NCBI GenBank assembly: GCA_001028815.1
Contig: LDJB01000003.1
Location: 110,850-174,849, forward strand
Source of the DNA: Peptococcaceae bacterium 1109
Lineage (GTDB): Bacteria > Bacillota > Limnochordia > Darwinibacteriales > Darwinibacteriaceae
Direction of reading: 5' to 3'
DNA: 64,000 nucleotides
The first letter of the stretch is position 1, and each line of letters opens with the position of its first letter. The position numbers and the translations under genes were made by a program. The notes below the pieces were generated by a model. The model was given only the letters and a program-made list of their open reading frames with translations. It was not told the origin of the DNA and did not search any database. Positions 421 through 14,529 of this stretch are shown here, in pieces.

Positions 421-1692
421 TTACCGATGGGTACGGTGCCACCGTGCCACTTCGTCTTCGTAGTTCTTTTGAGCGTCCCGAAGGGCTTGGTCTGGGTCCT
501 TCATGCCCTGGTATACTGCATCCAGCTCTGGGCTCAAGGAGCTGTCATACCAAGTGGGAGCTTCTAGTGAGAATGGACGGAAGCGGGACACTCCCATTTC
601 GTCGATCATGACCCGCCAGGATGGGTCGGCCATTAGCTCCTCATCGGTGGAACCGGCAATGGAGCCAACCAGGGACGAGTTCACCTTAGCGTACTCCGCT
701 TGAATCTCTGGAGACATGAGGTAAGATAGGAACCGCCATGCCGCCTCAGGATTCTTAGACTGGCTGGAAATCTCCAGGCTGAACCCGTTGCTCCAGCTGG
801 CGGGGGTGCCGTTGTGAGGCAGGCGGGCTACCCCAAACTCCATATCTGGTGCGTAGCGAAGGATAGTTTCCCGGAAGGTGTTGTTGTTCCCCACCATGGC
901 CACTTTGCCGATGAGGAACGGATCCATGGCATCGCCACCAAAGGTGGAGGTGAAGCTGGTAAGCTCCCTCAAGCCGTAAGTGTCCAGGAAGGACTTCACA
1001 TACTCCAGAGCTTCCACTGCTTCAGGGGTGTAGAGCTCGATCTTGCCTTCATCGTCAACCAGGGTGGCCCCGTTCTGCCAGGCGAAGATCCACCAGTACA
1101 TGTTACTCAGGTTAGGATGGAACCCGATTCTGGTGAGGCGCCCGTTGCTGTCCCGGGATGTCAACAGATCCGCGTACTCCTTTAGTTCATCCCAGGTCTG
1201 AGGGGGGCTCTCTGGGTCAAGGCCCACTTCCCGGAAAGCAGCCTTGTTGTAGTAAAGTACCCGCACGTCAGTCTCCCAGGGCATGGCGTAAACTTGGCCG
1301 TCCCAGATAATGACGGAATGGGTTGCTGGCCAGAATTCGTCCAAGGTAACACCTGACTGAGCCATATACTCATCCAAGGGGATGATCATATCCGCATGGG
1401 CTCTCTGCCCTACGTTCCCCAGGTCGTTCATGGCCACATCCGGGGCAATCCCTGCCGCGGTGGCTGTGGCGATCTTGGTCCAGTAATCCCAGAAGTTTAC
1501 GCCCAGGTCTTCCACGATAATATCAGGGTTAGCCTCGTTGAAGCGCCGCACAACATCCTTCATCCAACTCTGCACTTCGCCGCCGTCATAAATGTGCCAG
1601 AAGGTAATCTTAGTGGGAGCCGCTGAAACAACCATGCTCATTACCAGTACCGCCGAGAACGCCAACAGCCAAACCGAAACTCTCTTCCTCAT
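421..1692 (-). CDS. sugar ABC transporter substrate-binding protein with Sec signal peptide
   Basis: 423-aa ORF starting MRKRVSVWLLAFSAVLVMSMVVSAAPTKITFWHIYDGG, typical of a family-1 extracellular solute-binding protein. RBS GGGAGGAAAGGAGA lies directly upstream of the ATG. Confidence 0.8.
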   Translation of the reverse strand: MRKRVSVWLLAFSAVLVMSMVVSAAPTKITFWHIYDGGEVQSWMKDVVRRFNEANPDIIVEDLGVNFWDYWTKIATATAAGIAPDVAMNDLGNVGQRAHADMIIPLDEYMAQSGVTLDEFWPATHSVIIWDGQVYAMPWETDVRVLYYNKAAFREVGLDPESPPQTWDELKEYADLLTSRDSNGRLTRIGFHPNLSNMYWWIFAWQNGATLVDDEGKIELYTPEAVEALEYVKSFLDTYGLRELTSFTSTFGGDAMDPFLIGKVAMVGNNNTFRETILRYAPDMEFGVARLPHNGTPASWSNGFSLEISSQSKNPEAAWRFLSYLMSPEIQAEYAKVNSSLVGSIAGSTDEELMADPSWRVMIDEMGVSRFRPFSLEAPTWYDSSLSPELDAVYQGMKDPDQALRDAQKNYEDEVARWHRTHR

Positions 1693-1788: not shown

Positions 1789-4680
1789 TTACCGCACAAG
1801 CAGTGCCCGCAGGCAAAGGGTTTGATAGGGTTTGAGGGTGAGCTTGGGTGAGAGCTCCTCCCCTTCCACAATTAAGCCTGTAGGCGTAGATTTATGCAGG
1901 ACGGCCACGGTGTGGCCTGGAAAAAGCAGCTCCGTCTCTGAGGCCTTCCCCGCGAGTTCCTGCAGCCATACTAGATAGGCCCCGGGCTGGTCAAGTTTGA
2001 AAAAGTGAGTTACAGCCACATCTTCGTTGGTAGAGCAGATAGACCCCTCCGGCTCAGGGAGCCACTCGTTCTGGGTTTTCTGATCTGGGGTGAGGAAGAA
2101 CCCCACAAAAGGATGGTACACTTCCTGGGCAAAGCGGTGGGCATCCTTAAGCTCTACCCGTTCCCCGGACGTTAAGGCAAAGGCCAGTGTGAGCTTACTC
2201 CAAGCCCCGTGGCTGTGTCCGATCCGGAAGAACACCTTGCCTGTGCCAGGGGCCCACTTGCCCTTAAGAAATTGGTTAAACTTGATGCAATCATACTCCA
2301 CCACAGAGGCATCGCAGGAGGTTAGAACCACCCCACTCCCTTGGGAGTCTCTCAGGCTGATCCAGTCTTCCACCCCGTAGAAGTCCATACAGCTACCAGG
2401 GATCTGCCCCGAGGAACCGGGACTAGTCCAGGTCCCAGGGATAGCGTGATCCACCCTGGCAAACTGGGAGGCAAAGGGCAGTGCTACATAGTAAATCTGC
2501 TCAGGCGGCTTCAGGGCCCCAGGCAGGCGCTGGATGTGCAGTGCCAAGTCTACGCGCTTCACCTGGTGGTAGAGGGTGATCTCCCAGGTAAGGGAGAGCT
2601 CCGCTGCTAAACAGCTCCGCCGAACGATGGTAACCTGCGGCCCATCTGCAGCTAGCTCCGTACTGAGCTTACATCCCTCTTGGGGGACAACCGCCCGGAT
2701 ATCCCCTTGGTCAGGAACCCCTTCGTACAAGTCGTCCCGGGCCTGGAAATCCCCGCCAGGCAGATCACTGTTGGGCCGCCCTGGCTGGTACAGCACCACG
2801 CTGCCAAAGGGAAGTCTCCCCTCATCTAGGAGCGAGGCTCCTGTCTCCCTGTCCACGATCTGGGAAAGGGGCCGGCCGTCCCCGAGTTCGATGGTGTAGT
2901 AGTGATTAGCAAGGGCCTTTCCTCCTAAAACGGGCTGTTTTGCTGTTCCCGCCCTTGCCCTCACTGGGATGTCTTGCCAGCTAAAGGGCGGAACATCCTG
3001 AGCGTATCCCAGGTAGCACAGGCCCTCGTAGGCGAAGTGGCCCGCAAGGCGCTGCCAGTTGGGGTCTTGATCTAGCTCAGGGATAGGCTCGGCGCTATCC
3101 ACCCGCACCAAGCCTGGCCCCTTCTGATAGCTGGTACTTACCGCGATTACGCTTGGCTCCTTCGGCCGGGGTATCTTCTCTTCCACCCCTGCGGCAGCTG
3201 CTTCTGTAATCGCGGAAACCGCCTTCAGAGGCCGGCTTAAGTAAGCGAGCCCTTCCGCAGTGGCCTGAGCCTGTTTGTGCTGGCGAAAAGCGACCCACAC
3301 CCCTTTCAGCCCGCTGTGTTCATCAAAGGTGAGTAGATCGTCATAGGCCTCATCTAGGCTGGTATGGGGATAGGTATAAGCCTCGTTCACCATGTCCGCT
3401 AAGGTGGCCAGCCGTTCCGCCTGTTCCAGCTTGCGGTGGGCCCGGCGGGAGCGTGCCCCTTCCTCTGGATAGCCCGCCACAGAGGCTGCCCACCAGCTGG
3501 GCCAATCCCCTTCATACACGGGAAAGGCCTTTCCATACCTTGCTTCTAGCTCACTCAGAAACTCACTGGGGAGAGCGATCCTCAGTTTAGGCATTAGGTA
3601 AGCCTCGTTCCACAGCCGCACGATCTGCGCGGGCGCGGCCTGCAGTGGATCGTTGTCGAAGGCAACCTGGAGCAGCACAGCATCGTAAGGGTAACCGCTC
3701 CCTTCCAGCTCTGCAAGATGTACAGGGAGCTTGGCCGCGACAGCCTCCACACCCTCCAAAAGGCCATAGCGGGCCCCTTCGATATACGCCCAGCGTGGAT
3801 CGCCTGTATACCAGACAAGAAGCTCTTCCCCGCCCCGGGCCCGCCAATAAAACGGCCTGGGCGGCGGGTTACAACGATGAAAGGGAGCGCCAAAATTGTT
3901 GGGCGCCATGAAGAGATAACGCACTCCCGCACTTGCCAAGACAGGGATTACTCCCCAGGTGGCCCCAGGAATATCCGAAAGCATGGCGCTGGTAAGCGGC
4001 ACCCCCCGCCGCTTCCACCATTCCCCTTCCCAAGTGATGCGGTGCAGCTGATTGGTTCCTAAGATCTCAAAATGGTTGTGGAGGTAGCAGGCGGTGATCT
4101 CAATCCGCCCCGCCTTGGCCGCCTCAACTACCTGCTCCACTCGTTCAGGGGCCCTGGTTCGGCGGTAGTTTTGCAGCTGCCAGGTGTTCTCCACCGTCCA
4201 CTTAACCTGTGCCTCCTCTGGCCAGCTCCGGGTAGCAGAGATGGCCGCGAGTGCCAGATCCAGGTTCTTGCTGTGAATAGCCGCAGCCTCGCTGGGCGGG
4301 TGGGTAAAGCCCACATCGCAGTGGGAGTGGACTGCCACAAACACTTCCCACTCCCGGACAGGCTGAAGGTACTCCCTCTTAGTCGAGAGCTCTTCACCGG
4401 ATGGCCCCACTAAAGCAAAGGTATACTCCTGGGCTCTGTGCTCCAAGCCAACTTGGGCACGGACGTGTACCCTGGCGGTAGCCTTACCGGAGCCGCCTTC
4501 TCCTGGCCTCCACTTCAGGTTGTCAAAACACAGCTCTTCCCCGCAGCCGCGGATGTGCACTCCAAGGCCAGCAAGGGAGTTCCCTTTCTCGGAACCTTCT
4601 ACAGAAATCTCCACTAGTTGGCGGGGGCCCTGCTCTGTCTTGGCAACCAACTGCAAGGGCGTTACTTCCATCCGGTACAC
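1789..4680 (-). CDS. glycoside hydrolase family 38-like alpha-mannosidase; the listed ORF is over-extended upstream
   Basis: Motif VFVAVHSHCDVGFTH matches the GH38 HxHxDxGW signature, and the following block (RIEITACYLHNHFEI) aligns to lysosomal alpha-mannosidase. Likely start is GTG at 4680 (VYRMEVTPL) with GGAGGT 8 nt upstream, or ATG at 4671. The Arg-rich upstream 118 aa overlap the ROK kinase gene and are probably not translated. Confidence 0.6.
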   Translation of the reverse strand: MYRMEVTPLQLVAKTEQGPRQLVEISVEGSEKGNSLAGLGVHIRGCGEELCFDNLKWRPGEGGSGKATARVHVRAQVGLEHRAQEYTFALVGPSGEELSTKREYLQPVREWEVFVAVHSHCDVGFTHPPSEAAAIHSKNLDLALAAISATRSWPEEAQVKWTVENTWQLQNYRRTRAPERVEQVVEAAKAGRIEITACYLHNHFEILGTNQLHRITWEGEWWKRRGVPLTSAMLSDIPGATWGVIPVLASAGVRYLFMAPNNFGAPFHRCNPPPRPFYWRARGGEELLVWYTGDPRWAYIEGARYGLLEGVEAVAAKLPVHLAELEGSGYPYDAVLLQVAFDNDPLQAAPAQIVRLWNEAYLMPKLRIALPSEFLSELEARYGKAFPVYEGDWPSWWAASVAGYPEEGARSRRAHRKLEQAERLATLADMVNEAYTYPHTSLDEAYDDLLTFDEHSGLKGVWVAFRQHKQAQATAEGLAYLSRPLKAVSAITEAAAAGVEEKIPRPKEPSVIAVSTSYQKGPGLVRVDSAEPIPELDQDPNWQRLAGHFAYEGLCYLGYAQDVPPFSWQDIPVRARAGTAKQPVLGGKALANHYYTIELGDGRPLSQIVDRETGASLLDEGRLPFGSVVLYQPGRPNSDLPGGDFQARDDLYEGVPDQGDIRAVVPQEGCKLSTELAADGPQVTIVRRSCLAAELSLTWEITLYHQVKRVDLALHIQRLPGALKPPEQIYYVALPFASQFARVDHAIPGTWTSPGSSGQIPGSCMDFYGVEDWISLRDSQGSGVVLTSCDASVVEYDCIKFNQFLKGKWAPGTGKVFFRIGHSHGAWSKLTLAFALTSGERVELKDAHRFAQEVYHPFVGFFLTPDQKTQNEWLPEPEGSICSTNEDVAVTHFFKLDQPGAYLVWLQELAGKASETELLFPGHTVAVLHKSTPTGLIVEGEELSPKLTLKPYQTLCLRALLVR

Positions 4681-4694
4681 GGGCCGGCACCTCC

Positions 4695-5615
4695 TCAGCC
4701 TTGGAAGACGGCAAAGGCCGCTCCCTTGACGCCTGCATCTTCTAGATCTGCCCCGCGCCTCAGCTTCCCATTGGGGGCAAGGCGGCTTAGCCCTACCAGG
4801 ATTGGCTCCGCAAAGAGGTGGAGGCTCTTGGCGATGCTGCCTCCAAGGAGAAGGCAGTCGGGCTGAAACCTCTCGATAGGCCCAGCTAAGGCTTCCACGA
4901 ACATCTCTCCCCAAACCTGAAAGAGCTTCTGGCAGGCTGGGCAGCCCCCATCTGCTGCTGCGGCCAGTTCTGCAACATCTAATCCGTGGGGAAGCTCGGG
5001 GGCTTCCCCTTGCCTTTCCTGCCACAGGGTAAGAATCCCCCGGCGGGAGATATAGTCATCCACCCGCCCTGTGCGGTAGGGGAGGTTATATACATATCCG
5101 TTTTCACCAGCGCCAGGCACCGCGCTCTGAACCTGGCCGTCCACAAGGAACGCTGAACCACAGCCCGTGCCCAAGGTGATGGCCATCACCCGCCTAAAGC
5201 CCCGGGCTGCGCCAAACTGCCACTCCCCCAGGGCGAAAGCAGCCGCATCGTTCAAAAAGCGCATGGGCATCCCCTCAGGCAGCCCTAGGCGGCCCCGCAG
5301 TTCAGCCTGAAGGTTAACTCCATACAGTGCATCGTACTTCGCCACATTCTGCATCAGGCTGATACCCTGAGCATAGTCAAAGGGGCCAGGGATCCCCATC
5401 CCTACCCCAACAACGCCTTGGGGGGCAGCTTGCAGAACCGCTGCCATGCCCCTGGCAAGGTTGGCTAGGATGGTGTCTTTATCTTGGTGAGCTTGGGGAT
5501 CGAACTGATGCACAGGGCTTCTGAGCCTGCCCCCTGCATCCACCAGGGCAGCCCTGACTCCGGTGCCCCCCACATCCACCCCCAAAGCCAGGCGTGGTTG
5601 CGCGCAATCGGCCAT
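4695..5615 (-). CDS. ROK-family sugar kinase (glucokinase/mannokinase-like)
   Basis: 306 aa. N-terminal LGVDVGGTGVRAALVD sugar-kinase ATP motif and ITLGTGCGSAFLVDG ROK-like signature. No N-terminal HTH and no canonical CxCGxxGCxE zinc motif. Its stop overlaps the RBS of the GH38 gene. Confidence 0.6.
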   Translation of the reverse strand: MADCAQPRLALGVDVGGTGVRAALVDAGGRLRSPVHQFDPQAHQDKDTILANLARGMAAVLQAAPQGVVGVGMGIPGPFDYAQGISLMQNVAKYDALYGVNLQAELRGRLGLPEGMPMRFLNDAAAFALGEWQFGAARGFRRVMAITLGTGCGSAFLVDGQVQSAVPGAGENGYVYNLPYRTGRVDDYISRRGILTLWQERQGEAPELPHGLDVAELAAAADGGCPACQKLFQVWGEMFVEALAGPIERFQPDCLLLGGSIAKSLHLFAEPILVGLSRLAPNGKLRRGADLEDAGVKGAAFAVFQG

Positions 5616-5638: not shown

Positions 5639-7423
5639 TTAACGTTTGATGTACACCCGTACCAGTTGGCAAGGCTCGGGGCCTTCGTTGGTGATGGTGT
5701 ATGTCCCGCTCGCCGCGGGGATGACAAGACTTTCAAGGTAATGCATTTCCCAAGCGAACTTGGGGTCTTTTTCCAACGTAACTTGCACCTTTTCACCCTT
5801 AACCAGCACCAAGATTTCGAAGTAGCCGTTAGGAGTGTTAGTGAGCTGATCCGCTACGGTAAGGCGCCGGGTGCCGAAGAACGCCAGATGAGTTGTGCCA
5901 AACTCCTCTTCCCGGCCCCCTTCTTCTTCTCTCATCACCCTCGGCTCAGGGATCAGATGCTGCTTCACCCAACTGGTAGCCTTGCTGGTATCAAGGACTT
6001 CTAGGCCAAACTTAGAATTTATGGGCCGAGGCTTACCTGTAAGGTCGGGCCGGAGGTAATCGTAGAGCTTAAAAGTATACCAATAAGGTGTGGAGCTGAT
6101 CTCTAAGACTAGGTTATCTGCGCCGCTGCAGTGCACGGTTCCGGAGGGGATTAGGAAGTAATCCCCTTCCCTGGAGGGAAATGTGTTGACGTACTGGGAG
6201 ATATCAAAGGGCGTGTGGGATTGCTCAGCATGGTGAATGGCCTCCACAAAGCCTTCCACGGGAACATCTTCCCGCAGGCCTAGGTAGACCACAGACCCAG
6301 GCTTTGCCTCTACCACATAGTAGCTTTCGTTTTGGGCAAAGGGTTCTCCGAAGTTCTGCCGGATGAAGGCGTCATGGGGATGGACTTGGCAGCTTAGGTT
6401 GGTGCCACCCATGGTATCTAGGTAGTTGATGCGAACGGGGAAAAACTCGCCGAAATCCCGCTCTCCCTGCGTTCCCAGGATGGACTGGGCGCTGTAGGCC
6501 ATCACCAGGGAAAAGGGGACTTCAACAGCCTCACCCCCCTCAACCCCTAACAGGATGCTGTTTTCTGGTGCAACGATTTCAAAGTCCCAGGCAGAGTTAA
6601 TAAAGGAGTCATCCAGCCCAGCCGCTTCTTTCAAACGCTGCCCTCCCCAAACCCCTGGCTGGAAATAAGGCTTACAGCGGAAGGGCCGCTGGGAAGCCGC
6701 AGCGATCATCTCCTGCAATACCGAGCTCTTGACCAGCCGTGGCGCGGTTTGGCAGTTGGCATCCACGTACCACTCCACCATCGGGAGCATCTCCCGGCGG
6801 TAGCGTTCCAGGATGGGCCACTCCACATAATAGGCGTGCTTGTATTTCTGGCTAGCGCTGGCAGCAGCAGGCCTATCCGCCCCGGCCTCCGCCAAGTTAA
6901 TAAGATCTCCCTTCTGGCGGCGGGTGATTTCCTCCCGGGTTAAGTCCAGATAGAAACTAAAGTCCACCTCGCCTTTGGCCATAGCCTTCATGGCCCCAGG
7001 GCCAGCCACTACAATCAGTGTATGGGCTCCGGAGTCCTTGCTCTGGGCCGCGGCATCGCAGAGCTGCTGGAACTTCTCCCTGTCGAAGTATACGGCGATG
7101 TCCAAATCGCACACCCTGCCAAAGACAGGGTTATCTGTAAGGTATGGCTCAAATACCGCAGCGAGCTCAGCGGAGCTTCTAAGGGCTGCTGTGGTATAGT
7201 ACACTGCACTCTGAGGGTCACCTAGCTCCTTTAGGAGCGCTCCCACCACTTCAGGAAAGCCCACCCCCCACATGCCGTCTAAGGCCACGGTTACAGGGGT
7301 GCCTTGCCCTAAGAGGCCTGCGATTTTCTCTGCCATCTCCCGGTACCCAAGGGAAATGGGCTCTGGACACGATGTTTCCCATCTGTACACAACATTCACT
7401 GGCTTGGTACGCATCCCATTCAC
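5639..7423 (-). CDS. class I mannose-6-phosphate isomerase (cupin, C-terminal ~330 aa) fused to an N-terminal ~260-aa domain of unknown function
   Basis: C-terminal part carries KPYFQPGVWGGQRL and SCQVHPHD (PMI type I zinc-binding QxHPD motif) and a TVHCSG cupin block. N-terminal 260 aa (LDGMWGVGFPEVV..., DFSFYLDLTREEITRRQ) resemble no family I can name. 2-bp gap to the ROK regulator gene. Confidence 0.6.
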   Translation of the reverse strand: MNGMRTKPVNVVYRWETSCPEPISLGYREMAEKIAGLLGQGTPVTVALDGMWGVGFPEVVGALLKELGDPQSAVYYTTAALRSSAELAAVFEPYLTDNPVFGRVCDLDIAVYFDREKFQQLCDAAAQSKDSGAHTLIVVAGPGAMKAMAKGEVDFSFYLDLTREEITRRQKGDLINLAEAGADRPAAASASQKYKHAYYVEWPILERYRREMLPMVEWYVDANCQTAPRLVKSSVLQEMIAAASQRPFRCKPYFQPGVWGGQRLKEAAGLDDSFINSAWDFEIVAPENSILLGVEGGEAVEVPFSLVMAYSAQSILGTQGERDFGEFFPVRINYLDTMGGTNLSCQVHPHDAFIRQNFGEPFAQNESYYVVEAKPGSVVYLGLREDVPVEGFVEAIHHAEQSHTPFDISQYVNTFPSREGDYFLIPSGTVHCSGADNLVLEISSTPYWYTFKLYDYLRPDLTGKPRPINSKFGLEVLDTSKATSWVKQHLIPEPRVMREEEGGREEEFGTTHLAFFGTRRLTVADQLTNTPNGYFEILVLVKGEKVQVTLEKDPKFAWEMHYLESLVIPAASGTYTITNEGPEPCQLVRVYIKR

Positions 7424-7424
7424 C

Positions 7425-8630
7425 TCAACCTTTCTTGTTACTTCCCCCGAGCCTATGCTCGAACACCAGCGCTGCTGCGCCCATCAGGCTCGTATCTGCT
7501 AAGAAGACTGCCGGTTCAATGCGCAAGCCCTGGCGATGCAGTTCAGGCCCGCGATGGTGCAAGATGGGCTGCATAGCCTCAACCAGCAGGTCATAAACCC
7601 GGCTAAAGGCTCCCCCGATGTAAACCACATCAGGGGCGATAATCACGTTCAGCATACTCACCGCGATGGCAAGATAGCGCCCCGCCTCCCTGATGGCCTC
7701 TGCCGCCACATCATCCCCTGCCTGCGCTGCATCCATAATCTGACTTAAGGACTCCATCTGCGGTTCCGCGGCCCCTGCTGGCAGCAGTACCGTGGGACGG
7801 CCCAGGCGGATCTGATCGTTAATCCGCCGCACAAGGGCGGAGTAGGATATAAATGTCTCTAGGCAGCCAAATTGGCCGCAAGCGCAGCGCTCGCCCCTGG
7901 GGTCCACCACAGCGTGGCCGATGTCTCCCGCGGCGAAGTTCTTCCCTGCATGGACTCGTCCGTCCATAGCTAGGCCTACACCTACACCGTAGTCTACCAT
8001 CAAGAAGGCAATGGTCTGCTCTGGCTGGCTCGCCCGCCACCAGATTTCCGCCAAAGCCCCTAGGCGAGCGTCGTTATCGATGTGGACGGGAAGCCCTACC
8101 CCATCCTCCACCAGGTCTGCTAGAACCACCCCTTCACCGCCAATGTTAGGCGCCAAAGTGATGCGGTTTTCCTGATCCACAACCCCGGGGAAACTGATCC
8201 CGATCCCCTGGAGGTTAAATCCCTGCTCTCTGCAGTGTTTTAGGGCGGCGTTGATGGTGTTCCGCAGATGGGTGACAAACATCCCTCCACGAAAGCGGGC
8301 CGCGCCTACCACCTCTTTGTGAAGCACCTTTCCAGCAAGATCCACAACGGCCCAGGTGAGATCGTGCACCCCCACGTGGACTGCGAGAGCCCGGTTTGCC
8401 TCGCCGTTTAGGCAAAAAGCTTCGGCCCGGCGGCCGCCAGTTGTGACGGAGCGATCCGCAGGCTTAATTAATGACCTTTCCTGCAGTTCCCGGAAAATAG
8501 CAGAAACTGTGGGTACGGTGAGGCCTGTTTGTTCCACTACTCCGCTGCGGGTCAGCATCCCATGCCTCCGCAGCTGCTCTATAACGAGCCGTTGGTTTTC
8601 TGTGCGAATATCATGCTGCCGTATTGCCAT
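7425..8630 (-). CDS. ROK-family transcriptional regulator (NagC/XylR-like)
   Basis: N-terminal wHTH (LTRSGVVEQTGLTVPTVSAIFRELQE) plus ROK sugar-kinase fold with the CACGQFGCLETF zinc motif. 401 aa. Divergent from tetR. Confidence 0.85.
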   Translation of the reverse strand: MAIRQHDIRTENQRLVIEQLRRHGMLTRSGVVEQTGLTVPTVSAIFRELQERSLIKPADRSVTTGGRRAEAFCLNGEANRALAVHVGVHDLTWAVVDLAGKVLHKEVVGAARFRGGMFVTHLRNTINAALKHCREQGFNLQGIGISFPGVVDQENRITLAPNIGGEGVVLADLVEDGVGLPVHIDNDARLGALAEIWWRASQPEQTIAFLMVDYGVGVGLAMDGRVHAGKNFAAGDIGHAVVDPRGERCACGQFGCLETFISYSALVRRINDQIRLGRPTVLLPAGAAEPQMESLSQIMDAAQAGDDVAAEAIREAGRYLAIAVSMLNVIIAPDVVYIGGAFSRVYDLLVEAMQPILHHRGPELHRQGLRIEPAVFLADTSLMGAAALVFEHRLGGSNKKG

Positions 8631-8642
8631 TCTAAGTATCCT

Positions 8643-8658
8643 TTACAAAGTTTTGTAA
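8643..8658. promoter_or_regulatory. 7-2-7 inverted repeat TTACAAAgtTTTGTAA, candidate operator, 13 bp upstream of the ROK regulator start
   Basis: Perfect 7-bp arms read directly in the sequence, located in the divergent intergenic region between the ROK regulator and tetR. Confidence 0.35.
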
Positions 8659-8787
8659 CCTTATTATATTACACCCCCTGAAAATGTCAATAGTTTTGTG
8701 TTCTTTGTTGATCGACCGTTAACCAAGGGCCTGTTTTCTGCGAACTTTATAAATATGGTTTACTAAGTAAGGGTGCAGCGGGGTCTC

Positions 8788-8817
8788 TTGACCACTCTGG
8801 TCGAATTGTGCTACACT
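8788..8817 (+). promoter_or_regulatory. sigma70-like promoter for tetR: TTGACC, 18 bp, TACACT
   Basis: -35 TTGACC at 8788-8793 and -10 TACACT at 8812-8817, about 60 nt upstream of the TetR TTG start. Confidence 0.4.
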
Positions 8818-8876
8818 GAAATCGCCCAAGATGGTCTAGAAAGGGGGAGAGCACCATCAACGAGGCGTTTCAGAAG

Positions 8877-9512
8877 TTGGAACCTGAGAAGCAGCAGCGG
8901 ATCTGGGATGCCGTTTTGCGGGAGTTTGCAGCCAAGGGCTATAGGGATGCGTCCACCAACCGCATCGTAGAGGATGCGGGCATCGGCAAGGGCATGCTCT
9001 TTTATTACTTTAAGAACAAAGCAGAACTGTTTCGTTCCGCTTTAGTATACTGCCTTGACTACATCGAGGAGGAATATGTCCGAAGGCTGGACTTTAGTGA
9101 ACCAGATTTCATTGTCCGCTTCAGCAAGGCAGTGGAAGCCAAAATGGCCGCTTACCTTCGCAACCCGCTGCCCTTTACCTTCCTGGCAAGTTTCCACATC
9201 AACCGAGAAGCGGTTGAGATCGCTCCTGACCTCTATAGCCGGCTGCAGGAGATGGGAAACAAGGGCATGCAGGCCCTCTTTGCTGATGTAGACGTGAGCC
9301 TCTTCCGGGACGACGTTGCCCCTGAGCATATCCTGAACATCATCCGCTGGGTGATGGACGGTTGGAGCCAGGATATTATTGCCCATCTTGAGAGGGAAGC
9401 TTTGTTGGATTATGACTGGGAGTCCACCACTAAGAAGCTCTATGAGCTCTTCGCAGTCCTCAGAAAAGTTCTGTATAAGGAGGTCCAAAATGGCGATTCT
9501 AAAGGTCAGTAA
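8877..9512 (+). CDS. TetR/AcrR-family transcriptional regulator
   Basis: N-terminal IWDAVLREFAAKGYRDASTNRIVEDAGIGKGMLFYYFKNKAELF is a canonical TetR HTH. TTG start per the ORF track. 3' end overlaps the ABC ATPase gene by 23 bp. Confidence 0.85.
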   Translation: MEPEKQQRIWDAVLREFAAKGYRDASTNRIVEDAGIGKGMLFYYFKNKAELFRSALVYCLDYIEEEYVRRLDFSEPDFIVRFSKAVEAKMAAYLRNPLPFTFLASFHINREAVEIAPDLYSRLQEMGNKGMQALFADVDVSLFRDDVAPEHILNIIRWVMDGWSQDIIAHLEREALLDYDWESTTKKLYELFAVLRKVLYKEVQNGDSKGQ

Positions 9513-10374
9513 TGTCACGAAGCAGTTTGGGCACGTCACCGCCTTGGACGGCATCAGCTTTGAGGTTGGCCAAGGTGAAATCTACGGGTTTATCGGGCCT
9601 AATGGCGCGGGAAAGACCACCACAATCCGGATCCTCCTAGGGATCCTCAAAGCCACCAGCGGCTCTGCCCAAATCTTTGGCAGTGATGCATGGCAAGATG
9701 CAGTGGAAATCCACAAGCGGATTGCATATGTCCCAGGGGAAGTAAGCCTCTGGCCCAACCTTACTGGTGGGGAAGTAATCGACCTCTTTCTCAAACTACG
9801 GGGGGCCAACGGCCGACACAGTCGGGATGAACTGATCGAACGCTTTGACTTAGACCCCACCAAGAAATGCGGCACTTATTCCAAGGGTAACCGCCAGAAG
9901 GTCGCGCTCATCGCTGCCTTTGCCGTTGATGCGGAGCTCTATATCCTAGATGAGCCCACCTCGGGGCTGGATCCCTTGATGGAGATCGTTTTCCAGGAAT
10001 GCGTTCGGGAAGTGAAGGCGGCAGGTAAGAGCGTCTTCCTCTCCAGCCACATCCTCTCGGAAGTGGAGAAGCTCTGCGACCGGGTGAGCATTATCCGGCA
10101 AGGGAAAATCATCGAGTCAGGCTCCCTGAGAGAACTGCGCCACCTTACCAGGACTAGGGTTCGGGTGGAAACGGCCAGGCCCATTCAAAACCTGAGCCAA
10201 GTCCCGGGAGTGCATGATGTGGAAGCCTTTGAAAGGGGCGCAGCCTTCCAGGTAGACTCAGAACGGCTAGGCGAAGTCTTGCGGTACATTAGCGACTTTG
10301 ACGTCGTGGCCTTGGAAAGCGCCCCGCCCACCTTGGAAGAGCTGTTCATCCACCACTACCGGAGCTGGAGGTGA
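9490..10374 (+). CDS. ABC transporter ATP-binding protein
   Basis: Walker A GPNGAGKTTT, signature SKGNRQKVALIAAF, Walker B LYILDEPTSGLD. True start is ATG 9490 (MAILKVSNVTKQFG) with AAGGAGG 7 nt upstream; the track ORF from 9379 is over-extended. Confidence 0.85.
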   Translation: MAILKVSNVTKQFGHVTALDGISFEVGQGEIYGFIGPNGAGKTTTIRILLGILKATSGSAQIFGSDAWQDAVEIHKRIAYVPGEVSLWPNLTGGEVIDLFLKLRGANGRHSRDELIERFDLDPTKKCGTYSKGNRQKVALIAAFAVDAELYILDEPTSGLDPLMEIVFQECVREVKAAGKSVFLSSHILSEVEKLCDRVSIIRQGKIIESGSLRELRHLTRTRVRVETARPIQNLSQVPGVHDVEAFERGAAFQVDSERLGEVLRYISDFDVVALESAPPTLEELFIHHYRSWR

Positions 10375-11981
10375 ACAGGTTGCGCCACCTCTTTGCTAAT
10401 ACAGGAACTCTAGCCCGCTTCATCTGGCGGCGAGACCGTGTTCGGCTCCCTGTGTGGGTACTGTCTATCGCGGCGTTCTCCATATGCTTTGCCTCCATGT
10501 TTCCAAGCCTCTACCCCCCGGGGCCAGAGCGGGAGATAATTGCCCAGACCTTTGCCAATCCAGTGTTTATCTCCATGCTCGGTCCCGGCTATGGGCTGGC
10601 TGATTACCACATGGGAGCGATCATGGCCCACCAGATGCTTCTCTTTACTGCGGTGGTTGTGGCCATCATGAACATCCTCCTTACCATCCGCCATTCAAGG
10701 CGGGACGAAGAAGGGGGACGCATTGAGGTCATCCGCTCCCTGCCTGTGGGGAGGCTTGCCAACGCTGCCGCACTTATGCTGGTCCTTGCCGCCGGCAACA
10801 TCGTCTTGGGAATAGCCACCGGGGCAGGCCTGGCTCTCTTGGGCCTGGAAGGGATGGACTGGGCTGGATCGGTGACCTACGGCGCAGTACTGGCCGTTAC
10901 AGGCATGTGTTTTGCCGCCCTCACCCTCGTCTTTGCCCAGCTCACCGAAACGTCCAGGGCTACCATGGGATACGCCTTCGCCTTCTTAGGGCTGTCCTTC
11001 CTGCTCAGGGCAGTAGGTGATGTGAGCAGTGAACCCCTGTCCCTCATCTCCCCCTTAGGGCTGGTCTTGCGGGCACAGGTGTACGTAAGCAATTACTGGT
11101 GGCCCATCTTGATCACGTTTGTGGCTGCAGCAGCCTTGATCCTCCTGGCCTTTCGCCTCAACCTTGTGCGGGACTTGGGTGCAGGGTTCATTCCCGCCAG
11201 GCCAGGCAGAATGCACGCCTCGCCCTTCCTAAAGTGCACCTTAGGCCTTGTCTTCCGCCTGGAAAGGACCGTGATCATCGGCTGGGCCGTAGGCATGTTT
11301 GTCCTGGGGGCATCTTACGGTTCAGTCTTTGGAGAAGTCGAGACCTTTGTCCAAATAGGCGATCTTTACCAGCTGATGCTCCCAAGCGTTGAGGGGTTCT
11401 CCTTCACCGATCAGTTCGTAGCCATGCTCCTCGCGGTGATGTCTATGGCCGCGGCCATCCCCGCGCTCCTCATCATCCTTAAGCTCCGGGGTGAAGAGGG
11501 GGCGGGCCGCACAGAGCACCTCCTCTCCCGAGCTGTGTCCCGGGCCCAGATTATGGGCAGCTTCTTGGCAGCCGCGCTGGGATCCGCGGTAATCATGCAA
11601 GTCCTAAGCGTCCTGGGGCTGTGGTCTGCCGCCGCGGCGGTGGTGAGCGACCCCTTTTCCCTGGGAGAAGCCCTCCTGGCTTCGCTAACATACATCCCTG
11701 TGATCTGGGCCTTAGTGGGGCTGGCTGCGGCGCTCATCGGCTTTGCGCCCCAGCGTACCAACTTGGTCTGGCTCTACTTGGGCTACGCGTTCTTTACAGC
11801 CTACTTCAGAGCCCTGCTCCAGCTCCCTGAGTGGCTGGTTAAACTTACTCCCTGGGGCCACATTCCCAATATCCCCTTGGAAACAGTGAGCCCAGCTACG
11901 GTGGTGCTCATTCTCCTGGCGGCGATCGCCTTGATGGGGCTCGGGTTTGTGGGCTATGCCAAGCGAGACATATCCGGGTAA
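10371..11981 (+). CDS. ABC exporter permease (ABC-2-like, polytopic, 536 aa)
   Basis: Start overlaps the ATPase stop (ATGA-type coupling). About 10-12 predicted TM segments by hydrophobic stretches. Partner of the preceding ATPase. Confidence 0.7.
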   Translation: MNRLRHLFANTGTLARFIWRRDRVRLPVWVLSIAAFSICFASMFPSLYPPGPEREIIAQTFANPVFISMLGPGYGLADYHMGAIMAHQMLLFTAVVVAIMNILLTIRHSRRDEEGGRIEVIRSLPVGRLANAAALMLVLAAGNIVLGIATGAGLALLGLEGMDWAGSVTYGAVLAVTGMCFAALTLVFAQLTETSRATMGYAFAFLGLSFLLRAVGDVSSEPLSLISPLGLVLRAQVYVSNYWWPILITFVAAAALILLAFRLNLVRDLGAGFIPARPGRMHASPFLKCTLGLVFRLERTVIIGWAVGMFVLGASYGSVFGEVETFVQIGDLYQLMLPSVEGFSFTDQFVAMLLAVMSMAAAIPALLIILKLRGEEGAGRTEHLLSRAVSRAQIMGSFLAAALGSAVIMQVLSVLGLWSAAAAVVSDPFSLGEALLASLTYIPVIWALVGLAAALIGFAPQRTNLVWLYLGYAFFTAYFRALLQLPEWLVKLTPWGHIPNIPLETVSPATVVLILLAAIALMGLGFVGYAKRDISG

Positions 11982-12047: not shown

Positions 12048-13382
12048 CTAGACAAAAATGAGATACAAGATGGTGACGGTAATCAGCCCTACGATGCCCG
12101 TCACCAAGCTCGCAAGTGTTTGGAGGCGATATGCTTCCGATACCTTCATGTCGGAGAACTGGGCCACTACCCAGAAGTAGCTGTCGTTCGCGTGAGAGAC
12201 GGTCATGGCTCCTGCCCCAATGGCCATTACGGCCAGGGCAGGGCCGACCCCCCCAGCTAGTCCCAAGGCCCCTAGGATGGGCGAAACGATCCCCGCAGTA
12301 GTGATGATGGCTACCGTGGAGGACCCTTGCGCGGTCTTGATAGCAGCAGCCAAGATGAAAGGCAGCAGTATACCGAACTGCAAGCCAGAGAGGGACGAGG
12401 TAATGTAGTCTGCGATGGCAGTTTCTCGAAGGACTGCACCGAGGGCACCACCAGCCCCAGTGATGAGGATGATCATCCCCGCATCCTTCAGCCCCGCAGA
12501 AACCCAATCCCCCATCACCTCTCCCGTGAGCCGCTCCACTGTGAGGAACGCCAAGAACACCCCAATCAAGAGAGCTACATTGGGGTTCCCCACAAAACTG
12601 ATGAAGTTCCGCAGAGTCCCTGCGCCTAGGGGATTGGTGGGGTAATCTGCCACAGACTTAAGGGCAATGAGCACCACCGGCACCACAATGGGGGCAAAGG
12701 AGCGCACAGCCGAAGGCAAGTGCCGGGCTTCTCCCCCTGTTTCCTCCGCCATGGGCTTGGGGTCAATATGAACCCTCGCCCCATAGGTCTTGGCAAAGAT
12801 ATAACCAGCTAAGATGGTGGGAACTGATACGACTAGCCCCAAGAGGATTACTGTGCCTAAATCGGCCCCCAGAGTCCCCGCTGCAGCGATGGGGCCAGGG
12901 GTTGGAGGCACAAACACGTGGGTGGAATAGAGCCCCATGGAAAGAGCAACCGCGAACACTGCTAGCGACTGCTTAGACCGTGCCGCCAGAGACCTGTTTA
13001 GGGGGGATAGAATCACAAATCCCGAGTCACAAAATACTGGAATGGATACCACTCCGCCGGTGACGGCCATGGCGAGTGCGGAGCGTTCTTGCCCTACCAG
13101 CTTCAAGATGCTGTTGGCCATGACCAGGGCAGCACCGCTTTTTTCCATGATGTAACCCATGATCGTCCCCGCAGCGATCACAATTCCGATGCTTCCTAAG
13201 GTACTGCCAAAACCGGAGGTCATAGCGGAGACCACTTGTGCCGCGGGAACCCCGGCTAGAAGCCCCACGCCAAGCGTGGTCAAGAGCAGGACCAGGAATG
13301 GATGGAGCCGCACCCGGGCCGTCATCACCACGATGAACACTATTGCACCCAGGAGCAGAACGAGCAACCACGCACCTGTCAT
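12048..13382 (-). CDS. GntP-family permease (gluconate/glycerate:H+ symporter family)
   Basis: 444 aa, polytopic. N-terminus MTGAWLLVLLLGAIVFIVVMTARVRLHPFLVLLLTTLGVGLLAGVP is typical of GntP. Confidence 0.8.
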   Translation of the reverse strand: MTGAWLLVLLLGAIVFIVVMTARVRLHPFLVLLLTTLGVGLLAGVPAAQVVSAMTSGFGSTLGSIGIVIAAGTIMGYIMEKSGAALVMANSILKLVGQERSALAMAVTGGVVSIPVFCDSGFVILSPLNRSLAARSKQSLAVFAVALSMGLYSTHVFVPPTPGPIAAAGTLGADLGTVILLGLVVSVPTILAGYIFAKTYGARVHIDPKPMAEETGGEARHLPSAVRSFAPIVVPVVLIALKSVADYPTNPLGAGTLRNFISFVGNPNVALLIGVFLAFLTVERLTGEVMGDWVSAGLKDAGMIILITGAGGALGAVLRETAIADYITSSLSGLQFGILLPFILAAAIKTAQGSSTVAIITTAGIVSPILGALGLAGGVGPALAVMAIGAGAMTVSHANDSYFWVVAQFSDMKVSEAYRLQTLASLVTGIVGLITVTILYLIFV

Positions 13383-13398
13383 AGTGACACCCCTTTTG

Positions 13399-14529
13399 CT
13401 ATCTGTGCAGCCACAGCCGCATCACCTGGGCCGCTTGAAACTCCACTAATTCCGCAGTCTGGGCCATGGCCTCTTCGAGAGACAGTGGTTGGTTCAAAAC
13501 AGAAAAGCTTGCGGTGATCCCTTCTCCATGCAGTACGTCTGAATCTAAGGTGACAGTGCCCGCCAGTACGACTACAGGTACTCCTAAGCCCCGGCAGATG
13601 CGGCCAACTCCCACAGGGACTTTGCCGAAAGCTGATTGGGCATCGAACTTCCCTTCCCCTGTGAACACGAGGTCCGCGCCTTGCACCTGTTCCTCAAAGC
13701 GCAACACCTTAAGGACGAGCTGAATCCCTGAGACGAGCTTCCCCCCGAGGAGAGCCATAAGGCCCGCACCAAGGCCTCCTGCGGCTCCGGCGCCAGGAAC
13801 TGTTTCTACATCTCTTCCTAAGTCTTTCCGGATTACCTCTGCATAATTCCCCAAGGCTGCATCAAGCTGAGCCACCATCTCAGGAGTGGCCCCTTTCTGG
13901 GGCCCGTAGATGTGGGATGCCCCGGTTGGCCCAGTGAGGGGGTTATCCACATCGCACGCGACTTCAATGGTTACTGCCGCGAGCCTTGGGTCCAGCCCAG
14001 AAACGTCAATAGATGCCAAGCGGGCAAGCTCTCCACCACCTGAACCTAACTCCTTGCCTTCGCCATCCAGGAAGCGCACTCCCAGGGCCTGGGCCATCCC
14101 CATGCCCCCGTCGTTAGTGGCACTTCCCCCAATGCCGATCACCAGGTGATTACAGCCCAAGTCTAGGGCCCGGCCGATAAGCTCCCCCGTACCATATGTA
14201 GTCGTCACTAAGGGGTTGCGCTTGTCCGGGGGCACCAAGGTGAGGCCCGAAGCTTGGGCCATTTCGATGACCCCAGTTTGGCCATCTCCCAAAAGGCCTA
14301 GCTTGGCCCAGACCGGGGCTCCTAAAGGCCCGGTCACCTGAAACTCGTGGTATGTACCACCGCTTGCTTCCACCAACGATTCCACCAGCCCCTCACCGCC
14401 GTCGGAAAGGGGCAGAAGCACTGTTTCTGCCTCTGGTTCAACACGCTTTACTCCCCGCTGAATGGCTTCCCCCACTTCAGCTGCGGAGAGGCTGCCTTTA
14501 AACGAATCAGGGGCGATTACAACCCGCAC
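13399..14529 (-). CDS. glycerate kinase (GlxK/GarK family)
   Basis: MRVVIAPDSFKGSLSAAEVGEAI... N-terminus, 376 aa. Overlaps galU by 13 bp. Confidence 0.85.
   Translation of the reverse strand: MRVVIAPDSFKGSLSAAEVGEAIQRGVKRVEPEAETVLLPLSDGGEGLVESLVEASGGTYHEFQVTGPLGAPVWAKLGLLGDGQTGVIEMAQASGLTLVPPDKRNPLVTTTYGTGELIGRALDLGCNHLVIGIGGSATNDGGMGMAQALGVRFLDGEGKELGSGGGELARLASIDVSGLDPRLAAVTIEVACDVDNPLTGPTGASHIYGPQKGATPEMVAQLDAALGNYAEVIRKDLGRDVETVPGAGAAGGLGAGLMALLGGKLVSGIQLVLKVLRFEEQVQGADLVFTGEGKFDAQSAFGKVPVGVGRICRGLGVPVVVLAGTVTLDSDVLHGEGITASFSVLNQPLSLEEAMAQTAELVEFQAAQVMRLWLHR

Follow-up and report, generated by a model that had tools for sequence, protein, structure and literature searches.

What does a mannose-6-phosphate isomerase (PMI) do with a long N-terminal region that carries no domain annotation? 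This question is raised by an open reading frame (ORF) on the minus strand of a 64,000-nucleotide stretch of the genome of Peptococcaceae bacterium 1109 (contig LDJB01000003.1, positions 110,850 to 174,849). The whole stretch is called the window here, and its product of interest the window protein. The gene is an ordinary member of a family that is already named in databases, and its architecture is very common in bacterial mannose-utilisation operons. The novelty lies in the 40% of the protein that had no annotation, which can now be identified and which is dead as a kinase yet strongly conserved. We consider it likely that the gene belongs to a large uncharacterised family of ‘long’ class I PMIs, in which a kinase-derived N-terminal domain (N-domain) is an integral part of the enzyme and which would act in the alpha-mannoside pathway proposed below. 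The ORF and its two halves are:

5639 to 7423, minus strand: whole ORF, long-form class I PMI; 594 aa if read from the GTG at 7423, 591 aa from the more probable start, the ATG at 7414
6701 to 7423, minus strand: N-domain, residues 1-241, P-loop-kinase-like fold without P-loop motifs (pseudokinase)
5639 to 6700, minus strand: class I PMI double cupin, residues 242-594, and stop codon

One unbroken ORF with a GTG start spans 5639 to 7423 in the ORF listing, and the plus-strand translation of this interval is riddled with stops. An earlier note on this DNA had described a single continuous frame without stating the strand; the frame is indeed uninterrupted, and all peptides cited there are found in the minus-strand translation. 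Other details need correction. The WGG motif had been placed at about residue 265, whereas KPYFQPGVWGG begins at residue 251 and WGG lies at 259. The extension, given as about 260 aa, comes to about 240 aa, because residue 3 of the B. subtilis PMI 1QWR aligns to residue 242 of the window protein (phmmer) and the PMI fold thus begins around there. The frame had also been said to contain no internal start; in-frame Met codons occur at residues 4, 30, 51, 145, 148, 212, 215 and 239. At residue 239 an AGGAG abuts the ATG with zero spacer, a poor geometry for ribosome binding, and the N-domain is under clear purifying selection, so that a PMI-only isoform from Met239 is not favoured. The upstream gene ends, stop codon included, 1 nt before the annotated GTG at 7423. 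A likelier start is the ATG at 7414 (residue 4), because a Shine-Dalgarno-like GAGGTG lies 6 nt upstream of it and the nearest homologues begin MR(V/T)xP(V/M)N; to judge from these signals the product is probably 591 aa long.

Compared with PMIs of about 320 aa this length is unusual, and length is the only point which speaks for an assembly, frameshift or gene-calling artefact that joined two genes. We give this explanation next to no chance and regard it as effectively refuted. The same continuous two-domain protein is present in hundreds of independent genomes, some of them complete (Paenibacillus, Bacillus, Ktedonosporobacter), and those apparent stand-alone N-domains that we inspected are contig-end truncations. 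The full-length AlphaFold2 (AF2) model has a predicted local distance difference test (pLDDT) score of 91.4 and a predicted template modelling (pTM) score of 0.91. Such a pTM value indicates, at the level of the model, a fixed arrangement of the two domains.

How widespread the architecture is can be seen from the homologue search, which returned at least 948 matches. The best 120 are almost all 560-630 aa long, cover 87-100% of the query and are named ‘class I mannose-6-phosphate isomerase’; they come from Neobacillus, Paenibacillus, Bacillus, Symbiobacteriaceae, Chloroflexota and Ktedonosporobacter, and none of the 120 carries a precomputed Pfam domain. A profile of the N-domain finds 1216 representative clusters. 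In a scan with one genome per species we obtained at least 588 relatives or genome loci from about ten phyla, all of which match from about residue 5-90 through to the C-terminus. Among the matches listed are Bacillota, Chloroflexota, Bacteroidota (including Bacteroides and Segatella copri), Acidobacteriota, Ignavibacteriota/Chlorobiota, Verrucomicrobiota, Planctomycetota, Deinococcota and Pseudomonadota (Serratia, Rahnella, Mixta, Dryocola). The earlier note had asked whether orthologues carry the same fusion or two separate genes: across hundreds of genomes they carry the fusion, and in none of the homologues inspected was the N-terminal region a separate known gene that an indel had joined to the PMI. 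No stand-alone N-domain gene was found among the 200-300-aa matches inspected (P0121, P0123, P0129), which are contig-truncated or run on into the RPFRVKPxFxPG motif and break off inside the PMI N-terminus; an independent N-domain gene family is rejected on these grounds.

In Bacteroidota the protein is extended further. Hundreds of fusions of about 890 aa have the order ROK + N-domain + PMI (for example P0135, P0136, P0144, P0201 and P0270-P0386, and locus L075 at 8001-9596). Their NCBI name is only ‘ROK family protein’, and Pfam annotates just the ROK part. The reverse order, N-domain + PMI + ROK, is seen in P0236. Two further proteins are built differently: P0177 (597 aa) has a short-chain dehydrogenase domain (7-135) before the N-domain (264-462) and may be a chimeric gene call, and P0195 (989 aa) has an N-terminal region of about 400 aa with no Pfam match and an ASKHA/ROK-like DLGGTK motif.

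Is the C-terminal half a working PMI? The residues that bear on this are:

6377 to 6397, minus strand: L-S-C-Q-V-H-P motif with zinc ligands Q346 and H348, aligned to LSIQVHP of E. coli ManA
6326 to 6328, minus strand: E366, third metal ligand; NESYY aligns to TECWY of 1QWR
6131 to 6133, minus strand: H431, fourth metal ligand; GTVHC aligns to GTLHA of 1QWR
6050 to 6070, minus strand: K452-L-Y-D-Y-L-R458, aligned to R-V-Y-D-Y-D-R of 1QWR

On its sequence, this half is a complete zinc-dependent double cupin of about 350 residues. It matches 1qwr and 1zx5 with E ~1e-10 (phmmer) and has the double-cupin PMI fold with its catalytic and C-terminal beta-sandwich domains. The Gln/His/Glu/His zinc site of class I PMIs is intact (Q346, H348, E366, H431); in E. 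coli ManA the two ligands within LSIQVHP are numbered Q97 and H99. K452 and R458 supply the basic residues of the C-terminal PMI signature, where they align to the Arg residues of T-Y-R-V-Y-D-Y-D-R in 1QWR; we take these positions to be the phosphate-binding Arg site described in the Candida and Salmonella PMI literature. In the 84 family sequences used for conservation counts, Q346, H348, E366, H431, K452, D455 and R458 are conserved in 100%, and so are R331, R520 and E564.

The N-domain was more difficult to place. The earlier note could not assign it to any family and suspected a regulatory or a second, possibly kinase-like, catalytic domain. As far as sequence searches are concerned the first statement stands: neither half of the protein drew a significant match from Pfam or NCBIfam, 28 N-domains run singly against Pfam at E <= 10 yielded no PRK (PF00485), Udk or PanK model and only scattered chance matches, and the N-domain profile hit nothing real among PDB sequences. 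Fold prediction, in contrast, shows a kinase-like fold. Weak matches of the window protein to beta-lactamase and CXCL12 were judged to be chance, as was a Disabled-2 PTB match to the peptide T-D-N-x-x-F-G-x-V (E ~0.6) in the PDB-sequence profile search. The N-domain features are:

7250 to 7285, minus strand: degenerate Walker A remnant ALDGMWGVGFPE, residues 47-58, between strand beta1 and helix alpha1
7118 to 7138, minus strand: signature loop T-D-N-P-V-F-G, residues 96-102, from the family alignment
6932 to 6952, minus strand: Y-L-D-L-T-R-E, residues 158-164, equivalent to the (F/Y)VD...R lid segment of Udk and PanK
6815 to 6844, minus strand: start of a long helix, Y194-K195-...-W202-P203

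The AF2 model of the N-domain alone has a pLDDT of 93.9. Fold comparison (scores in brackets) puts it beside human nicotinamide riboside kinase (12.6), uridine kinases (12.3, 12.1, 11.8), the putative fructose-transport-system kinase FrcK (12.0), phosphoribulokinases (11.8-10.8) and the Udk-like N-terminal domain of S. pombe Tad2 (11.5). Foldseek independently ranks pantothenate kinase (PanK), nicotinamide riboside kinase (NRK1), uridine kinase (Udk) and phosphoribulokinase (PRK) at the top, with E 2.7e-7 to 1e-4 and probability 1.00. The fold is hence that of the P-loop NTPase kinases of the PRK/uridine kinase/pantothenate kinase type. At the sequence level, the N-domain profile aligns to E. 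coli CoaA with hhalign at E 2.7e-4 over 130 columns; against E. coli Udk the hhalign result is insignificant (probability 0.8%), and the short piece that does align is the expected strand 3-4 segment.

The CoaA alignment shows what has become of the catalytic motifs. V-A-L-D-G-M-W-G-V-G-F-P-E stands opposite I-S-I-A-G-S-V-A-V-G-K-S-T, so that K101 and S102 of the CoaA P-loop (GSVAVGKST) land on F56 and P57. The remnant keeps G50 and G55 of the Walker A motif within G50-MWGV-G55-F56-P57. Across 84 family members the Walker A Lys column holds W, F, T, D, L or E, and the G-x4-G-K-[ST] motif was found in 0/250 N-domains examined. The catalytic Asp is lost as well: CoaA D127 (TTDGF; the equivalent position in UCK2 is D62) falls on A79 (TTAAL), the family has A, T or S there, and the neighbouring columns 77-78 are variable (T/A/S). 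Also lost is the acidic residue after strand 3 (hhhhEG), since A140 or V139 stands opposite the Glu of ILEG in Udk and CoaA; here the strand end reads V-V-A-G-P-G-A, with G141, G143 and A144 conserved to >=95%. Further on, DFSIYVD of CoaA aligns to DFSFYLD of the window protein. From the fold matches and the CoaA alignment on the one hand and these losses on the other we conclude that the N-domain descends from a PanK/uridine-kinase/PRK-type P-loop kinase and is without the canonical phosphoryl-transfer motifs. With the Walker A Lys and Ser/Thr, the strand-3 acidic residue and the catalytic Asp gone, canonical ATP phosphotransfer is not to be expected. The kinase-like part of the earlier suspicion therefore holds for the fold and fails for catalysis, and we speak of a pseudokinase-type domain and not of a kinase.

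Could the N-domain nevertheless phosphorylate sugars, with a nucleotide or phosphoryl-donor site of a non-canonical kind, and the protein be a bifunctional mannokinase-isomerase? Its fold resembles small-molecule P-loop kinases that act on sugars or sugar phosphates (FrcK 3c8u, PRK, PFK-2 1bif, glycerate kinase and gluconate kinase), and its roughly 20 near-invariant residues suggest a functional pocket. Against this stand the motif losses themselves, as the Lys position never carries a conserved Lys and the Asp position is A, T or S. Moreover, the old phosphate site has become acidic (D/E49, D160, D221) and would repel ATP. Together with the gene contexts described below, these points make an active kinase very unlikely in our view.

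The domain is nonetheless far from degenerate. Conserved to about 90% or more are P8, D/E49, G53, D97, D/N98, F101, G102, G141, G143, A144, D160, R/K163, Q167, N176, Y194, K/R195, W202 and D221, with residues 49, 98, 163 and 195 counted as residue classes. Within this set P8, G102, Y194 and W202 reach 100%, F101 and D160 99% and D97 89%; residue 98 is D or N in 83/84 sequences, and residues 163 and 195 are always basic. P8 precedes residues 9-12, which turn into a strand only in the full-length AF2 model and not in the N-domain model. The window protein itself deviates at 6923-6934 (minus strand, residues 164-167): it has Thr in place of Q167 (93% of the family) and Glu in place of W164 (64%). 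An RE...T/I pattern of this kind is common to it and its close relatives in Bacillota.

In the model, four of the five strands (1, 3, 4 and 5) carry D/E49, G141-A144, D160 and D221 at their C-terminal ends, a face that, from the fold topology, would be the former active-site crater. The remaining conserved residues (D97, D/N98, R/K163, Y194, K/R195, W202) are found in the adjacent loops and helix. Because of this arrangement we propose, with low confidence, that the crater may dock the N-domain onto the cupin or may bind a sugar or sugar phosphate. R331, R520 and E564 of the PMI half, which are invariant in the family (1QWR has Leu at position 331), are candidate docking partners.

The gene neighbourhood indicates what the long PMI might do. 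Short gaps separate the minus-strand cluster genes between 421 and 8630:

7425 to 8630, minus strand: upstream ROK-family protein of 401 aa with an N-terminal extension (regulator type), Pfam ROK E 2.6e-55 over residues 82-389
4695 to 5615, minus strand: downstream ROK sugar kinase of 306 aa, presumed mannokinase, Pfam ROK E 7.5e-29
1789 to 4671, minus strand: alpha-mannosidase of glycoside hydrolase family 38 (GH38), Pfam Glyco_hydro_38N E 1.2e-11
421 to 1692, minus strand: solute-binding protein of an ABC transporter, the last cluster gene visible, Pfam SBP_bac_1 E 2.7e-36

The GH38 ORF as listed (1789-5025, 1078 aa) is over-extended and overlaps the ROK kinase gene; its first plausible ATG is at 4671 (MEVTPLQ...), which gives about 960 aa, with no clear Shine-Dalgarno sequence ahead of it. 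About 4.6 kb from the mannoside cluster, at 12048-14529 on the minus strand, there are a GntP-family permease and a glycerate kinase. The GH38 enzyme MngB of E. coli cleaves phosphomannosylglycerate, and the GH38 enzyme encoded here might conceivably have mannosylglycerate as its substrate. The genes at 8877-11981 on the plus strand, a TetR-family regulator (Pfam-checked) followed by an apparent ABC ATPase and a large membrane permease ORF, are divergent from the mannoside cluster and appear unrelated to the long-PMI gene.

Similar arrangements recur in other genomes. A short ROK gene directly adjoins the long PMI in 39 of 83 related loci, and the pair of long PMI and a ROK kinase of about 300 aa is seen in Neobacillus niacini, in Ktedonosporobacter and on metagenomic contigs, often together with GH38, which adjoins the pair in L003, L004, L008, L009, L019, L022 and L024. 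The gene order of the window, including the upstream ROK-family regulator, is repeated in L004/L005. Elsewhere a phosphotransferase system (PTS) is the neighbour. In Rahnella (L072, 6670-13187) the long PMI precedes IIA, IIB, IIC and IID of a mannose-family PTS; a LacI regulator lies upstream, and a paralogue of cupin-type glucose-6-phosphate isomerase (GPI) is close by. In Enterocloster (L049, 4848-10503) PTS IID, a GntR/UTRA regulator and two GPI paralogues of the cupin type come before the long PMI, and a Cof-type HAD phosphatase comes after it. Further enterobacterial and clostridial loci combine a mannose-family PTS with one or two cupin-type GPI (PF06560) paralogues (L065, L069, L083, L062). 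Bacteroidota locus L045, whose transporter gene we annotated, has SusC- and SusD-sized genes ahead of the long PMI and an MFS sugar transporter after it, and gene sizes follow this pattern in other Bacteroidota loci too. A PMI/ROK fusion that may belong to the long-PMI family, ‘pmi-manK’ BT2104 of B. thetaiotaomicron, was placed by Ravcheev et al. 2013 in the predicted ManR mannose/alpha-mannoside regulon (PMC3878776, supplementary file 3).

These contexts also bear on the idea of an active mannokinase. In about 37 of the 83 loci no ROK gene lies within three genes, which would leave room for a kinase activity in the long PMI itself. However, most contexts do offer another route of phosphorylation (an adjacent ROK, a fused ROK or a PTS), and fusing a ROK kinase onto a protein that already had a kinase for the same sugar would be redundant. 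A hexose that mostly arrives already phosphorylated, through a PTS or the action of another kinase, is in keeping with a sugar-phosphate isomerase and speaks against the N-domain as a kinase.

For the window we therefore return to a long PMI with an integral, kinase-derived N-domain, placed at the end of an alpha-mannoside pathway. Alpha-mannosides would be imported by the ABC system and cleaved by the GH38 mannosidase, the adjacent ROK kinase would phosphorylate the released mannose, and the long PMI would isomerise mannose-6-phosphate (Man6P) to fructose-6-phosphate (Fru6P), with the whole operon under the control of the ROK-family regulator. From the gene context we have fair confidence that the conversion of Man6P to Fru6P is the reaction of the window protein and the last step of alpha-mannoside catabolism. 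The N-domain would be an obligate, rigidly packed part of the enzyme. Its remodelled acidic crater might serve for docking to the PMI domain, or it might bind a sugar or sugar phosphate, either for regulation or in a hand-over from the kinase. A role in hand-over or sensing would agree with the triple fusions, where the N-domain stands between ROK and PMI.

Several points weigh against this reading. The curated PMI models (Pfam PMI_typeI_cat and NCBIfam) fail to recognise the window protein, whose sole Pfam match is sub-threshold (MPI_cupin_dom, E 0.072, 13.5 bits where the cut-off is 27). The window protein shares 13-21% identity with solved PMIs, so that substrate specificity could differ. 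The searchable literature yielded no assayed member of the long-PMI family. Finally, the number of near-invariant residues in the N-domain (about 20, many of them polar) is larger than a pure scaffold usually needs, so that it may have a role in catalysis or ligand binding.

The first two points lead to the possibility that the cupin half isomerises or epimerises a different sugar or sugar phosphate and that the N-domain confers this specificity. The invariant R331, R520 and E564 could be read in the same direction, as could the Rahnella and Enterocloster loci with their cupin-type GPI paralogues, HAD phosphatase and Man-family PTS, and the Neobacillus loci, which adjoin GH63-like and GH13 genes and not GH38; neither kind of locus points plainly to mannose. 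On the other hand, the four zinc ligands and the basic PMI-signature residues are intact, the commonest partners are GH38 alpha-mannosidase, ROK kinases and SusC/D systems with a sugar transporter, and the Bacteroides PMI/ROK fusion mentioned above, a possible family member, lies in a mannose regulon with alpha-1,2-mannosidase genes. We consider a different substrate unlikely. In the Neobacillus niacini locus L001 (10720-17785) the neighbours of the pair are GH13, a GH63/MGH1-like hydrolase, a GDSL esterase and an ABC transporter in place of GH38, a hint that the two enzymes may there be supplied from another glycoside.

The N-domain might also be more than a passive scaffold, namely a repurposed ex-kinase pocket, formed by the acidic crater and the invariant Y194, K/R195, W202 and D160, that might bind a sugar, a sugar phosphate or a metal. 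This is a possible but doubtful reading. In such a case the N-domain could act as an allosteric sensor, or it could take Man6P from the ROK kinase and pass it on to the cupin, in keeping with where it stands in the triple fusions. Even a catalytic step such as anomerisation of Man6P is conceivable: GH38 enzymes are retaining and release alpha-mannose, and PMI prefers the beta-anomer. If true, thousands of genomes, those of gut Bacteroidota among them, would encode P-loop-fold domains of a new functional class.

As regards the pathway, the role of the long PMI is as expected, and our findings refine an annotation and do not describe a new system. The family is abundant, with thousands of database clusters in about ten phyla (among them Bacteroides, Segatella copri, Paenibacillus, Serratia and Rahnella), and many loci for the use of mannosides and N-glycans appear to have it as their dedicated isomerase. 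Databases label its members ‘class I PMI’, or ‘ROK family protein’ in the case of the triple fusions, without Pfam coverage of the N-domain and PMI parts. The present analysis supplies the missing domain annotation together with a clean bacterial example of a small-molecule pseudokinase, and it raises the concrete question of what a pseudokinase does for a sugar-phosphate isomerase.

How does the long PMI compare with known systems? BT2104 shares with the triple fusions of about 890 aa both the functional prediction and the type of fusion, PMI with a ROK mannokinase; only PMI and ROK are annotated in that work, with no third kinase-like domain, and the assignment is comparative-genomic and not biochemical (PMC3878776). 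Our literature search for PMI fused to a pseudokinase or uridine kinase, and for BT2104, found no paper on the N-domain, and no PDB entry spanning both domains was found. Short bacterial class I PMIs such as B. subtilis 1QWR and A. fulgidus 1ZX5 lack the separate domain formed by the additional ~240 N-terminal residues. The window protein is about 19-21% identical to them and is missed by the Pfam PMI catalytic model, and its family adds the invariant R331, R520 and E564 (Leu in 1QWR at 331). B. subtilis has the PMI paralogues ManA, Pmi and GmuF, and gmuF adjoins the ROK kinase gene gmuE. Pantothenate kinase, uridine kinase, nicotinamide riboside kinase and phosphoribulokinase (3avo, 1sq5, 2p0e, 3asy, 1a7j, 3c8u) share their fold with the N-domain; they have Walker A GK[ST], the catalytic Asp and the strand-3 acidic residue, whereas the long-PMI family is without all three, and in the matches inspected the N-domain never stands alone and is always N-terminal to a long PMI domain. 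The Udk-like domain of S. pombe Tad2 has 8% identity and no detectable sequence relationship to the N-domain, and its partner is a tRNA deaminase and not, as here, a sugar-phosphate isomerase. As such it offers a precedent for a Udk-like fold that has been kept as an accessory domain of an unrelated enzyme.

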